This document shows, one piece after another, positions 20,607-39,543 of a stretch of 39,690 bases of DNA. Location: the IMG/VR virus record IMGVR_UViG_2734482571_000007; one strand, given 5' to 3'. This DNA comes from a virus. Lineage: Duplodnaviria > Heunggongvirae > Uroviricota > Caudoviricetes. The position numbers were made by a program, and so were the translations under genes. Position 1 is the stretch's first letter, and every line of letters begins with the position of its first letter. The notes beneath the pieces are model-generated. The model saw only the letters and a program-made list of their open reading frames with translations. It was not told where the DNA came from and searched no databases.

Positions 20607-20783
20607 ACCGGCAGCATAAGCCGGGTATTTTTGGGGCTGGTTTTGCGGGACTTCAGAAAGTGCTGACAGGGGGGGAATGAGAAAGGCGCTTCACGCAGAT
20701 TTTAAAGCCCGTTAAATACAGGTTAGAAAATCACGACACGCGCCTGAAGGGGGTAAGGTAATACGTTTGCATACCTTAAACCA
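20607..20783. promoter_or_regulatory. 177-bp non-coding G-I intergenic region: candidate late promoter and/or central strong gyrase site
   Basis: Largest gap in the otherwise overlapping structural cluster; sits near the prophage midpoint; carries a C7 run on the coding strand about 70 bp before the I start. Confidence 0.35.
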
Positions 20784-21257
20784 TTACGGCGTTTCTGTGG
20801 CCTTTTTAAAGCGTTTTCTGATTTCGTCCATGATCTCCTGTTCTGCCACCTGATCAAAGCCCATATACGGACGTGCGCCAATGGCCGCCGGTCCCGGTGG
20901 CATACCAGGCAGGCCACCCCACTGATGAATGGCTGCATAAGGTTCATTTGATCCAATCAGCGCCCAGGTATCGCCATAATCCGTGGTCAGGCGGCGGGCC
21001 AGATCGCCGTTCAGCGTCAGGATTTTGCCGGGCGTGTATCCCTTACGGGTACGCCACTCACGGTAAGGATCTGACCAGTCATGCCAGCGTTCACCATCCG
21101 GCTCTTTTTCCTGCTCAAACGCCATTTCTGACGATGACAGAAGACTCGCCGCCACACTGCGGGCCAGGTCTTTTCCGCCGCCCACAAACTGAAGCCGGGC
21201 AAACACTCGCTGGAGACGCGTAACGTCAACAACGACAGCTGCATCAATGGATGACAT
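20784..21257 (-). CDS. Virion morphogenesis protein (Mu G-like)
   Basis: 157 aa; position after F. Confidence 0.75.
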   Translation of the reverse strand: MSSIDAAVVVDVTRLQRVFARLQFVGGGKDLARSVAASLLSSSEMAFEQEKEPDGERWHDWSDPYREWRTRKGYTPGKILTLNGDLARRLTTDYGDTWALIGSNEPYAAIHQWGGLPGMPPGPAAIGARPYMGFDQVAEQEIMDEIRKRFKKATETP

Positions 21258-21296
21258 ATTGCCTCCGCATAAAGGATGAATATAAAATAAACAGGC

Positions 21297-21376
21297 GGTC
21301 AGTGTACGCTTAACTGGTAAAGTCGGTGCCTGCCTCCGGGTGGATCATGTATGCGGGTTCGACCCCCGCCACTGAC
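21297..21376 (+). ncRNA. tRNA-like element with degenerate anticodon arm (not a canonical tRNA)
   Basis: Perfect 7-bp acceptor pairing GTCAGTG/CACTGAC, canonical T-arm GCGGG-TTCGACC-CCCGC, plausible D-arm with GG in the loop; no acceptable 5-bp anticodon stem and no encoded CCA. Confidence 0.3.
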
Positions 21377-21378
21377 CG

Positions 21379-22710
21379 TTAATCAATTTGTCCTTCCAGC
21401 ACCTCAAGCATTCCGCCCCGGATATCCGATTTCAGCTTATCCATATTGATAACCCGGTAAGCATTCACAATCACATCCAGTTTGTCGGGCTGACGTTTCA
21501 GACTGTACGGTGCATTAACGGCAATCTGCACACTGCCATCCTGATTTTCCACGATATACATCAGATTGTTGTGCCGTTTGTCCCACAGTACCGCTTTTGG
21601 CCTTGCCAGCATTGCCGGTAAGCGCCCGAAGTCCTCCGGCGTCAGAGCGATGCCGTCATTCTGATGTTTCACACTGTCCGCATGGAGCACATTTTTACCG
21701 CTCATCGCCAGCAGGCGGGCCGGTGGCGTTCCCGTCCGGCTTTCCACTGCCTGCGCAATGCTTTCAGTCATAAAGCCCAGCGTGCGGATATCGTTACCAC
21801 CTCGCCGGGTCTGCATGATGTTTTTTGCCCAGATGCGGAACGCCAGCTGCCGCTCCGGGCTGTTGTTCATCTCCTGAACCACCATTTCCCGTAACGCCGG
21901 GCTTTTCACCTCGATCAGTTTGCGGATCAGCGCCTGGTCTGTGCCGAACGCTGCCGAGCCGGGGTTATATGACCAGCCCACATCCGGTGTCATGGTTCTG
22001 GCGCCATCTGAATATGTGGTCACCGGCATTTCTCTGACTTCTCCGGTCTGTTTATCCACGCCAGCCTCAACATTGCGGGTGGAGAGATGATCCTCACCGG
22101 ATGAAACGGATAACCCCATTGCATCCAGACGGGCCTGAGACAATGGCCGCACACGGCAGCGGCAGTTCCAGCCATTGGGCGGGTAGTGTGTTTTCCAGAA
22201 CGGATCGTCATAGCGGAATACCAGACCGTTAAGGGCGGAATGCGACGGGCGGGTACGGCTGTCCATGACCGCCACATACTGCCAGAACGGATGCGTGTCC
22301 GTGTTGTTCATCATCTGCGTGTAACGCCCGGCATTGTAAGCCACACGGGTGTTCACGTTGTAAATCAGCGCCAGACGACGGGGACTGCCCTGCTGCACTT
22401 CTTCCGCGTTACCGTCGCTGTCCACCACAATCTGCTTTCCCCACCATCCCAGCTTTTGCAGGCGTGGCGTCAGTGTGCGGATAAATTCTTTCTGTGAAAT
22501 CCCCTCATCAATGGCCCGCTGCACTTCGGCCTGTAATGTGGTTACCACATCCAGCCGTGCCGTTTTTGCTGCCGTGAATGAGCGGGCATGAACATCCGCG
22601 TCTGTTTCGAACCAGTTCCAGCTGATATGCGCCCCTTTGGCGCGGAAGTATGCCACCGTCTCTTTTGAGGGAAGCGTGGCGGCATAACCTAAATCAATCC
22701 CCTGAGCCAT
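21379..22710 (-). CDS. Head morphogenesis protein (Mu F-like / SPP1 gp7 family)
   Basis: 443 aa; position after the portal gene. Confidence 0.8.
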   Translation of the reverse strand: MAQGIDLGYAATLPSKETVAYFRAKGAHISWNWFETDADVHARSFTAAKTARLDVVTTLQAEVQRAIDEGISQKEFIRTLTPRLQKLGWWGKQIVVDSDGNAEEVQQGSPRRLALIYNVNTRVAYNAGRYTQMMNNTDTHPFWQYVAVMDSRTRPSHSALNGLVFRYDDPFWKTHYPPNGWNCRCRVRPLSQARLDAMGLSVSSGEDHLSTRNVEAGVDKQTGEVREMPVTTYSDGARTMTPDVGWSYNPGSAAFGTDQALIRKLIEVKSPALREMVVQEMNNSPERQLAFRIWAKNIMQTRRGGNDIRTLGFMTESIAQAVESRTGTPPARLLAMSGKNVLHADSVKHQNDGIALTPEDFGRLPAMLARPKAVLWDKRHNNLMYIVENQDGSVQIAVNAPYSLKRQPDKLDVIVNAYRVINMDKLKSDIRGGMLEVLEGQID

Positions 22711-38654: not shown

Positions 38655-38824
38655 AAACCACAGTATCAAATGAGTTGCCGATTTTATAATAAATGACTAA
38701 TTATTGCACAATCGGTATCAAATAGACCTTATCCGCACATCTAGCCATCACCTGTTTTATTTCAGTATCTTACAGGTGATTTCACCTCCTTTCACTAAAC
38801 CCCTTGTCGGTATCAAATGATTCA
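38655..38824. repeat. Prophage left-end transposase-binding repeats (three copies of the GGTATCAAAT core at 38661-38670, 38711-38722, 38807-38820)
   Basis: Inverted copies of the repeat at 212-295; inward-reading consensus GAWTYWTTTGATACCGA at both extremes. Confidence 0.6.
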
Positions 38825-39145
38825 CCTGGTTATATGTCGCCAGTCGATACCTTCCAGCAGCATCGCCAGCTGCGCCTGTGTAAGGAACACTTTGCCATCA
38901 CGGGCTGACGGCCAGGCGAAGCGCCCACGCTCCAGCCGTTTGGTCAGGAGGCACAGTCCGTCACTGGTGGACCACAGCAGTTTAACCTGACTGCCGCTGC
39001 GGCCCCGGAAAATGAAAACATGGCCGGACATGGGATCGTCTTTCAGCGCCGTCTGTACTTTCGCAGCCAGGCCGTTGAAGCCATTTCTCATATCGGTGAT
39101 ACCGGCAACCAGCCAAATTTTGATCCCGGAAGGTAACGGGATCAT
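38822..39145 (-). CDS. tnpB: IS66-family TnpB (Orf2)
   Basis: IWLVAGITDMRNGFNGLAAKVQ...FIFRGRSGSQVKLLW...GLCLLTKRLERGRFAWP matches the IS66 Orf2 pattern. Confidence 0.85.
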   Translation of the reverse strand: MIPLPSGIKIWLVAGITDMRNGFNGLAAKVQTALKDDPMSGHVFIFRGRSGSQVKLLWSTSDGLCLLTKRLERGRFAWPSARDGKVFLTQAQLAMLLEGIDWRHITR

Positions 39146-39543
39146 CGCTTCAGTTCCTGTATCAGCAGAGTCAGGAGCTTTTCGCTGACATTGCCATTGA
39201 AGCGGAGCGTCCCGTGCCGGAACGTTACCTCACAGCTGATACTGAGGGTTTTCGGGTCCTCTGCGAGCGATTCTGGCTGTTCGGCAGCTGCATCGAGAGT
39301 CACAGGAAGTAGCTGGGGGCTCTCTGAAGAAGGTAATAGCAGCTTTCCCTCGCGCCATTGTTGTCGCCATTTGAACAACAGATTGGCGTTAATGCCATTT
39401 TCAAGAGCAAGTTTTGAGATGGATATCCCGGGTTCACAGGAGGCAGCAACGAGCTGCTGTTTAAATTCGGGAGGATAATTAGGGCAGCCTTTTCGCCTGC
39501 CGGGAGTCACATTTTTCTGCATATCTGACACTTTGGTTCCCAC
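39142..39543 (-). CDS. tnpA: IS66-family TnpA (Orf1)
   Basis: GISISKLALENGINANLLFKWRQQW motif; overlaps the tnpB start. Confidence 0.8.
   Translation of the reverse strand: MGTKVSDMQKNVTPGRRKGCPNYPPEFKQQLVAASCEPGISISKLALENGINANLLFKWRQQWREGKLLLPSSESPQLLPVTLDAAAEQPESLAEDPKTLSISCEVTFRHGTLRFNGNVSEKLLTLLIQELKR

Follow-up and report, generated by a model that had tools for sequence, protein, structure and literature searches.

What is a stretch of DNA shaped like a transfer RNA (tRNA) doing between two head genes of a Mu-like prophage, on the strand opposite to the genes around it? The window considered here, i.e., the whole stretch of 39,690 nucleotides from a virus of the Caudoviricetes (IMG/VR record IMGVR_UViG_2734482571_000007), contains a complete Mu-like prophage in reverse orientation, as judged from Pfam matches and from the sizes and positions of its open reading frames (ORFs). 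An earlier note, made from the letters of the window, had placed a tRNA-like element in the 121-bp gap between genes F and G, opposite to the phage genes, and both its coordinates and its strand are borne out: the ORF list and the sequence put the gap at exactly 21258-21378. Comparison with relatives establishes a conserved and folded plus-strand gene for a tRNA-like RNA, antisense to the late head genes and headed by a conserved predicted promoter, in which the core of the tRNA L-shape (the D and T stems together with the tertiary nucleotides) is kept and a variable, structurally inert hairpin stands in the place of the anticodon arm. That the locus is a functional structured RNA gene is very probable, while the combined statement, namely that the gene is functional and transcribed on its own and that its non-decoding, tRNA-like RNA acts as a mimic, stands at about even chances; tRNA mimicry as the mechanism is put forward more tentatively, as a serious possibility. 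The parts of the element in the window are the following, all on the plus strand.

21296-21378, plus strand: tRNA-like RNA, bounded by a 9-bp terminal stem (Rfam tRNA model, 31.0 bits; family model, 92 bits; covariation; PGAP label).
21296-21304, plus strand: 5' strand of the acceptor-like stem, which pairs over 9 bp with 21370-21378.
21308-21323, plus strand: D arm, GCUU-AACUGGUA-AAGU, with G18 G19 (from the sequence, and a conserved block in 39 sequences).
21326-21348, plus strand: substitute for the anticodon arm, predicted to fold into a proximal helix GUG/CAU, an internal loop and a distal helix CUGCC/GGUGG under a UCCG tetraloop (21335-21338).
21353-21369, plus strand: T arm, GCGGG-UUCGACC-CCCGC (from the sequence and from conservation in the family).
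21370-21378, plus strand: 3' strand of the acceptor-like stem, after which the sequence holds no CCA.

The terminal stem, CGGUCAGUG/CACUGACCG, consists of a core acceptor pairing GUCAGUG/CACUGAC (21298-21304 with 21370-21376) extended by the pairs G21297:C21377 and C21296:G21378; the pairing that the earlier note had seen there is thus real, although its length is 9 bp and not 7-8 bp. U8 and A9 are present and are followed by one extra C before the D stem. The D-arm-like stem-loop with GG and the T arm with a TTCGA loop, both claimed before, are found at the positions listed, and the linker between the substitute arm and the T arm reads GUAU. Folding of the D-to-T interval yields no 5-bp stem with a 7-nt loop, in agreement with the earlier view that no acceptable anticodon stem exists; in its place lies a hairpin of 23 nt with two helices, the first of 3 bp and the second of 5 bp under the UCCG cap, with an internal loop between them. 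The absence of an encoded CCA is likewise confirmed, since the stop codon of gene F directly adjoins the stem.

The element is recognized by some of the general tools for tRNA detection and missed by others. ARAGORN, run on the window, finds neither a tRNA nor a transfer-messenger RNA (tmRNA) at the element, and an Rfam scan of the whole window with default filters gives no match there. Conversely, the covariance-model search that the earlier note had proposed does return a hit, and the lack of one, which the note had named as part of what would refute the element, is thus not observed: in a permissive Rfam scan of 251 nt (21200-21450), the tRNA family RF00005 matches 21298-21377 on the plus strand with 31.0 bits against a gathering threshold of 29 (E=6.7e-05), in an alignment that accommodates 24 nt in the anticodon region versus 18 in the model. 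Relatives of the element reach 35-37 bits against the same model, and a covariance model built for the family (R1) gives the window copy, which is the sole copy in the window, 92 bits. The tRNA-like match in the window is far beyond chance expectation. The element is also already visible to annotation pipelines: in identical prophages, RefSeq/PGAP labels the same 80 nt "tRNA-OTHER", and matches occur in 230 of 5426 complete genomes of Escherichia coli, many of which carry this call. A literature search found no description of the element. The label is not stable between near-identical prophages; specifically, in the O157:H7 allele (L139, E. coli O157:H7 Wll001 and other O157 genomes), one T-loop purine is changed (UUCAACC) and the RefSeq "tRNA-OTHER" label is gone, so that the annotation is inconsistent.

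Pattern scans of viral, genome and metagenome collections, combined with the R1 model, assemble a family of more than 45 distinct sequences, 39 of which enter the covariation statistics, with 500 shuffles and slid-partner controls. Standard pairs fill 92.7% of the pair cells versus 75.8% in shuffles, and cells in which both partners have changed number 125 versus 33.8, a value that none of the 500 shuffles attains; when the partner columns are slid, pairing falls to 33-56%. A MAFFT alignment folded with RNAalifold, independent of the model, recovers identical acceptor and T stems. The eighth pair of the terminal stem is standard in all 39 sequences (GC 18, AU 12, GU 4, UA 4, UG 1) and the ninth holds in 32, and covariation between positions 73-74 and positions -1 and -2 persists even in relatives in which the former belong to the stop codon of F. 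The T stem shows changes of CG to UA and of GC to AU, and the D stem two independent compensatory changes, one in a satellite copy described below (L005b, UA to CG) and one in the second copy of a metagenomic fragment (L151). G-U cells outnumber A-C cells by 28 to 3, and therefore the plus strand is the folded strand.

The nucleotides that hold the tRNA L-shape together are conserved throughout the family: U8, A14, A15 with U48, G18 G19, and U54 U55 C56 are invariant, A58 is present in 37 of the 39 sequences, and position 57 is a purine. The D arm is the best-conserved block (GUAC.CUUAA..GGUAAAG, invariant or nearly so); RNAalifold offers an alternative UAC/GUA pairing in this region, which is a possible reading, as the columns in question are invariant, although the tRNA-type D stem has the two compensatory changes just named. 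In E. coli prophages that are nearly identical to one another, the 83-nt element has 1 variable site versus 9 in the 98-nt flank, a pattern that speaks for purifying selection on the element, and this sole variable site is a purine swap at T-loop position 57. Two groups of matches were set aside as not belonging to the family. A search with the D-arm pattern alone gives 57 extra matches that are chance occurrences in coding DNA, with no T arm and no tRNA or model match, and the outgroup matches L041 (tRNA-Asn), L095 (tRNA-Val), L016, L043 and L046 are ordinary tRNAs or unrelated sequences outside F-G contexts.

The region between the D and T arms follows a plan of its own. Every member has a short covarying proximal helix, an asymmetric internal loop and a G-C-rich distal helix, within an arm whose length ranges from 22 to 51 nt; none of the 39 has a 7-nt anticodon loop. 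The caps include UUCG, UCCG and GCAA, with UNCG tetraloops in 14 of the 39 members and GNRA in 2, and the UCCG of the window corresponds to UUCG in close relatives. The anticodon arm has been replaced by a conserved two-helix hairpin and has not decayed, and the tetraloop caps make an antisense role for the arm loop unlikely. A specific pairing of this kind was considered and rejected: UGCCUCCG in the arm exactly complements the ribosome-binding site of gene G, and this complementarity is not conserved, as L010 and L023 have UUCG in the loop and a different G ribosome-binding site. The arm loop is better explained, on this comparison, as a UNCG tetraloop than as an anti-Shine-Dalgarno sequence.

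Set against what a decoding tRNA has, the family presents the D and T arms with their tertiary nucleotides, including the 15:48 pair, in the 39 sequences, and a score above the Rfam gathering threshold in the permissive scan only. It does not present an anticodon arm (5-bp stem, 7-nt loop, U33), nor a 7-bp acceptor stem with an unpaired discriminator and an encoded CCA: the stem has 8-9 bp, position 73 is paired, and no family member encodes CCA. Without an anticodon loop, the RNA cannot read codons; moreover, it is not built for aminoacylation, because it has no CCA, a paired position 73 whose base is variable, and no G3:U70.

Upstream of the element lies a feature that the earlier note had missed, a predicted sigma-70 promoter TTGCCT-N18-TAAAAT (21259-21288), whose hexamers are the following.

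21259-21264, plus strand: -35-like hexamer TTGCCT (promoter scan; most relatives have TTGCC(T/C) or TTGAAC at 17-18 nt spacing).
21283-21288, plus strand: -10 hexamer TAAAAT (promoter scan; predicted start at about 21294-21296, at the base of the stem).

A -10 hexamer that matches at five or more of its six positions is found in 24 of 32 relatives; it ends 7-12 nt ahead of the 8-bp stem and is accompanied by a -35 hexamer with 4 of 6 matches at 17-18 nt. The -10 hexamer varies by lineage (TAAAAT, TATACT, TATAAT) and yet is retained. This placement sets the predicted start at the first paired base or 1-3 nt ahead of it. The arrangement would make transcription independent of the C-dependent late promoters and points to expression in the lysogen. 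Downstream of the element, no conserved plus-strand ORF is consistent across loci.

In full-length prophages, a G homologue of about 155 aa and an F homologue of about 450 aa flank the element, which is on the strand opposite to theirs, and this synteny of G (PF05069) and F (PF04233) recurs in E. coli, Alishewanella and an uncultured gammaproteobacterium that comes from cattle. The F proteins of the carriers are 43-75% identical to the F of the window, and versions of the element that are only 73-77% identical occupy the same F-G gap. The comparison of the gap in related Mu-like phages, which the earlier note had suggested, thus finds the element kept in the carriers and absent from Mu and D108, whose F is 58% identical to that of the window and yet overlaps with G. 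A model search with filters off finds no element in D3112, B3, BcepMu, KP12 and the Ralstonia phage YO098_1. Only 2 of 50,697 deposited phage genomes carry it, both of them Shiga toxin (Stx) phages with an inserted Mu-like prophage, and the lack of a cultured representative is why the element is unstudied. From this distribution, the element is old within one clade of Mu-like prophages and dispensable for the Mu life cycle. With a promoter of its own, as predicted, and with its absence from close relatives that have the same flanks, it qualifies as a putative accessory module ("moron") of one Mu-like clade and of the Mor-carrying satellites described below.

Some copies depart from the single copy in the F-G gap. 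In two metagenomic fragments the element is doubled: in L151, two copies (120-199 and 754-835) flank a G-like gene, the second lying in the G-I gap with its D stem compensated, and in L156, two copies (1203-1283 and 1541-1625), each with its own duplicated promoter, flank a 71-aa ORF. In Alishewanella aestuarii B11 (L042, 4457-7145), a member lies outside any prophage head cluster, about 730 nt after a genuine tRNA and about 130 nt past the trailer end of a type I-F-like array of clustered regularly interspaced short palindromic repeats (CRISPR) with 42 repeats; it is probably a remnant, as its upstream sequence still resembles the F-G gap of an A. jeotgali prophage. Lastly, a 112-kb viral contig (L083, 1516-1589) holds a tRNA-like sequence of 74 nt, whose anticodon region is very short, beside genuine tRNA-Lys and tRNA-Arg genes, and anticodon-less tRNA-like RNAs may therefore occur in unrelated phages too.

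Beyond full-length prophages, the element marks what appear to be two kinds of Mu-type satellites, one integrase-based and one transposable. The first is an island of about 8 kb found in 14-15 of the 5426 E. coli genomes, with genes for an integrase, a helix-turn-helix protein, Ash and Icd-like proteins, DUF4222, a RepA helicase, SSB, PerC and Mor; from this gene set it looks like a satellite of Mu-like phages. Its loci (L005/L047, NZ_AP045176.1 744484-752667; L142; L143; L144) occupy tRNA-Ile (ileX) or other sites. At the end of the island, GTGAAA iteron-like repeats precede a tandem array of 2-3 element copies placed 16-22 nt apart, and the array is separated from a host gene by about 300 nt of non-coding DNA. 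A predicted promoter stands before the first copy alone, and the later copies must therefore be released by processing. The copies of an array have one common acceptor sequence and different arms, and represent both E. coli subfamilies, with one copy of subfamily A and one or two of subfamily B in each array. One of them, L005b, shares 84.9% identity with the element in the window across 71 nt. RefSeq misses one copy of the array and calls L005b "tRNA-Tyr", a label that arises because the palindromic arm happens to contain GUA.

The second kind is a mini-Mu-like element (L070, 1-14830) that encodes a CI-type repressor, an rve transposase, a MuB-like AAA_22/TniB-like ATPase, Mor, the Mu-type major head protein gpT, and a candidate defence protein of 786 aa (PADLOC PDC-S06). 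It has one tRNA-like copy about 300 nt inside its right end; after 215 nt, a variable cargo gene follows on the same strand, namely DUF2971/PDC-S31 in L070 and an unrelated ORF in L105. The right end of L070 contains repeats that resemble MuA-binding sites. This type of element is possibly a transposable satellite with defence cargo. In satellites, the tRNA-like element is co-oriented with the genes. Taken together, the tRNA-like module moves among Mu-related elements and is retained even in streamlined ones that have neither F nor G.

How such an RNA might work can be outlined only conditionally. The RNA would be expressed constitutively in the lysogen, and the host tRNA-processing machinery would stabilize it and excise the copies from tandem arrays. 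As a mimic of the tRNA body, it would then occupy or titrate a protein that recognizes the tRNA elbow and the acceptor helix, while the long terminal stem and the missing CCA would exclude it from aminoacylation and translation. The most plausible setting would be a phage-host or helper-satellite conflict; this role is the most economical guess because the element is accessory, antisense to core genes, self-promoted and common to satellites. A more specific version, which is speculative, would see in the family a new group of anticodon-less tRNA mimics, common to Mu-like transposable phages and to the satellites that exploit them, in which the body binds a host or phage tRNA-binding protein, the arm gives specificity, and the arrays are collections of specificities for helper-satellite or phage-defence conflict, so that the whole would form an RNA-only conflict module.

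Several observations weigh against the mimic. The single-sequence fold of the plus strand is only modestly better than that of shuffles (z = -1.71), and promoter, start site and 3' end are predictions; the window scan finds no terminator 3' of the gene, so that the 3' end must come from processing. Among the window genes checked (Mom, Gin, the tail fibre and its assembly protein, GemA, the repressor, protease I, the portal, F, G and the IS66-family element), no tRNA-related protein was found. For enzymes that depend on a free NCCA end, an RNA whose terminal stem runs to 8-9 bp, with its 3' nucleotides paired and no CCA, is a poor mimic. Moreover, the arms differ between the copies of the satellite arrays, a hint that specificity resides in the arm, and a generic decoy of the tRNA body leaves this unexplained. 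Lastly, the element is perfectly complementary to the late F-G messenger RNA (mRNA), and an antisense role is thus possible.

This role is the basis of the main rival explanation, a cis-antisense regulator, to which a low though not negligible probability is given. Here, the RNA, or a longer unterminated transcript, would pair with the late F-G mRNA, or its promoter would cause transcriptional collision, to damp leaky or premature late expression; on this reading, the tRNA fold would be only a stable, processable 5' module, and the satellite copies would act in trans on the late mRNA of the helper. The geometry suits this idea, as the gene is antisense to the late operon, the -35 hexamer lies over the ribosome-binding site and start codon of G, and there is no terminator before antisense F; likewise, the A and B copies of the arrays match two E. 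coli helper types, L005b being the copy close to the window element. However, pairing with mRNA needs neither invariant tRNA tertiary nucleotides, nor G18 G19 with U55 C56, nor A15:U48, and it is evident from the G-U pairs and the compensatory changes that the fold itself is under selection. In the satellites and the mini-Mu element, the RNA has no F-G mRNA to oppose, and complementarity elsewhere in the window is at the chance level (the longest match is 11 nt versus 10-13 nt in shuffles). A different use of the same fold, which is improbable, would lie in RNA processing or stability: as a kind of punctuation, it would attract RNase P, RNase E or RNase Z and set the ends or the stability of a co-transcribed downstream RNA, for instance that of a satellite cargo gene or, in phages, antisense RNA, without being an effector. 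The position of the L070 copy ahead of a same-strand cargo gene, the lack of a terminator after the element and the tandem copies that must be cleaved out agree with it, whereas full-length phages have no conserved plus-strand feature downstream, only antisense F, and the integrase-type array leads into non-coding DNA and a host gene.

The remaining explanations are each contradicted by specific tests. Of the three options left open by the earlier note, a tRNA-like RNA structure stands, while a decayed tRNA and a recombination relic do not, in view of the synteny, covariation, core nucleotides, promoter and low variation. Neutral evolution of such a relic could account for the lack of an anticodon loop and of CCA, for the failure of ARAGORN and default Rfam to see the element and for its absence from Mu; it is very improbable nonetheless, since conservation of the element extends to hosts from different orders, its substitutions are compensatory and its promoter is kept, covariation contradicts neutrality, the element varies at one site against nine in its flanks, and the replaced arm is a conserved two-helix hairpin with stable tetraloops. 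Just as improbable is a function of the minus strand, as a cloverleaf-like processing or insulating element of the late mRNA between F and G: this mRNA necessarily contains the complement, which folds at -26.7 kcal/mol. That fold, however, does not surpass those of shuffles (z = -1.0), only the plus strand gives T-loop and D-loop motifs that read correctly, the excess of G-U over A-C cells points to the same strand, and the satellites have the element co-oriented with their genes. A true decoding tRNA with an aberrant anticodon loop is the least credible of all. PGAP does call L005b a tRNA-Tyr, but its "anticodon" falls inside a perfect 16-nt palindrome, CAGCCUGUACAGGCUG, which forms a hairpin with a 4-nt loop, and neither a 7-nt loop nor an encoded CCA occurs in any member, whose acceptor stems are of 8-9 bp.

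The non-decoding tRNA-like RNA can be placed beside several known RNAs. It resembles a canonical tRNA (RF00005) in the cloverleaf of acceptor, D and T parts, in the nucleotides of elbow and core, and in the gathering score passed in the permissive scan; it differs in having no anticodon loop, a stem of 8-9 bp, a paired position 73, no CCA and an extra nucleotide after A9, as well as a predicted promoter of its own with the start at the base of the stem. Phage tRNAs without an encoded CCA also exist, some T4 tRNAs among them. T4 further encodes the so-called species 1 and 2 (RNA C and D), stable and non-decoding RNAs of the T4 tRNA cluster whose function is not known; the likeness (phage-encoded, tRNA-associated, non-decoding) is one of general description, and the T4 RNAs belong to a tRNA operon of a lytic phage, whereas the element is a solitary antisense gene in a head cluster. 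The P4 CI RNA and the P1/P7 C4 antisense RNA (RF01695) are small immunity RNAs with an acceptor-like stem that are matured by RNase P. Like them, the element is a small structured RNA with a terminal stem that closes it, and it occurs in temperate elements, among them satellites that carry Ash and Icd-like genes. Unlike them, its loops are often closed tetraloops and it has real D and T arms, which C4/CI RNAs are not known to have. Rfam C4 gives no match up to E=10 in 21200-21450 and none at the gathering threshold in the window, and C4-type loop targets elsewhere in the prophage window do not exceed chance (longest 11 nt; shuffles 10-13 nt).

Two other tRNA mimics invite comparison. YrlA is a bacterial Y RNA with a tRNA-like module that tethers Rsr/Ro60 (10.1101/312249). 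Like YrlA, the element would mimic the tRNA elbow with D-like and T-like arms and no anticodon. No Rfam Y RNA match occurs in the default scan of the window or in the permissive 251-nt scan, and neither rsr nor rtcB is among the neighbouring genes checked. The 5' and 3' ends of YrlA form the Ro-binding stem, and its acceptor-like arm is closed; by contrast, the ends of the element form the acceptor stem itself, which covaries freely and has no conserved bulges. The tRNA-like domain of tmRNA, which also mimics tRNA in a non-canonical way, has a T arm much like that of the element, and its tRNA function reportedly affects Mu prophage repression, an effect attributed to Ranquet et al. in 2001. 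It differs from the element, whose 3:70 pair is C:G or U:A and not G3:U70, whose D stem is intact and which has no tag frame. A tmRNA-like mini-ORF (ATG at 21347, 11 codons to TAA) was considered and rejected, as subfamily B does not keep it in frame and leaves it open-ended; no ORF is conserved in the element.

The genes on either side of the element, and the wider prophage, complete the picture of the locus.

20784-21257, minus strand: gene G, virion morphogenesis/tail completion (ORF list; PF05069, E=1.2e-33).
21379-22710, minus strand: gene F, MuF head morphogenesis protein (ORF list; PF04233, E=4.8e-30, and PF18819).

The stop codon of F (TTA on the plus strand) abuts the 3' end of the RNA gene, and at the other side the start codon of G (CAT on the plus strand, 21255-21257) and its Shine-Dalgarno sequence (CCTCC on the plus strand, 21262-21266) overlap the -35 region of the predicted RNA promoter. 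Across the window, Pfam matches identify Mom, Gin, tail genes, protease I, G, F, the portal, GemA and the repressor, while the large ORFs of the early end fit transposase genes by size and position. An IS66-family pair (orf1/orf2; PF01527, PF05717) at 38822-39543 lies at the right edge of the window, just outside the prophage on its repressor side. G and the protease gene I are separated by a non-coding gap of 177 bp (20607-20783), an interval that contains the strong gyrase site in Mu and the anti-CRISPR locus in Pseudomonas Mu-like phages. The C-terminus of F is a MuF_C domain (PF18819). MuF proteins of other phages can have C-terminal toxin domains, with immunity genes downstream; the idea that the RNA is an immunity partner of F found no support, as satellites have the RNA without F, and the F of Mu, of similar length, comes without the RNA.

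Although annotation pipelines already flag the element, to our knowledge no description exists of the properties of the family as a whole, of its constant site and its promoter, of an anticodon arm lost in a way that looks engineered, or of the arrays in satellites. Phage tRNAs are usually read as helpers in codon usage or as replacements for tRNAs cleaved by host defences, and a conserved, tRNA-shaped, non-decoding RNA fits neither reading. Its carriers amount to about 4% of complete E. coli genomes and include many Shiga-toxin-producing strains. If the RNA is indeed a decoy or a bearer of specificity, it would add an RNA-only player to the conflict between phage and host or between helper and satellite, and would give a function to features that are now labelled "tRNA-OTHER" or mislabelled "tRNA-Tyr".

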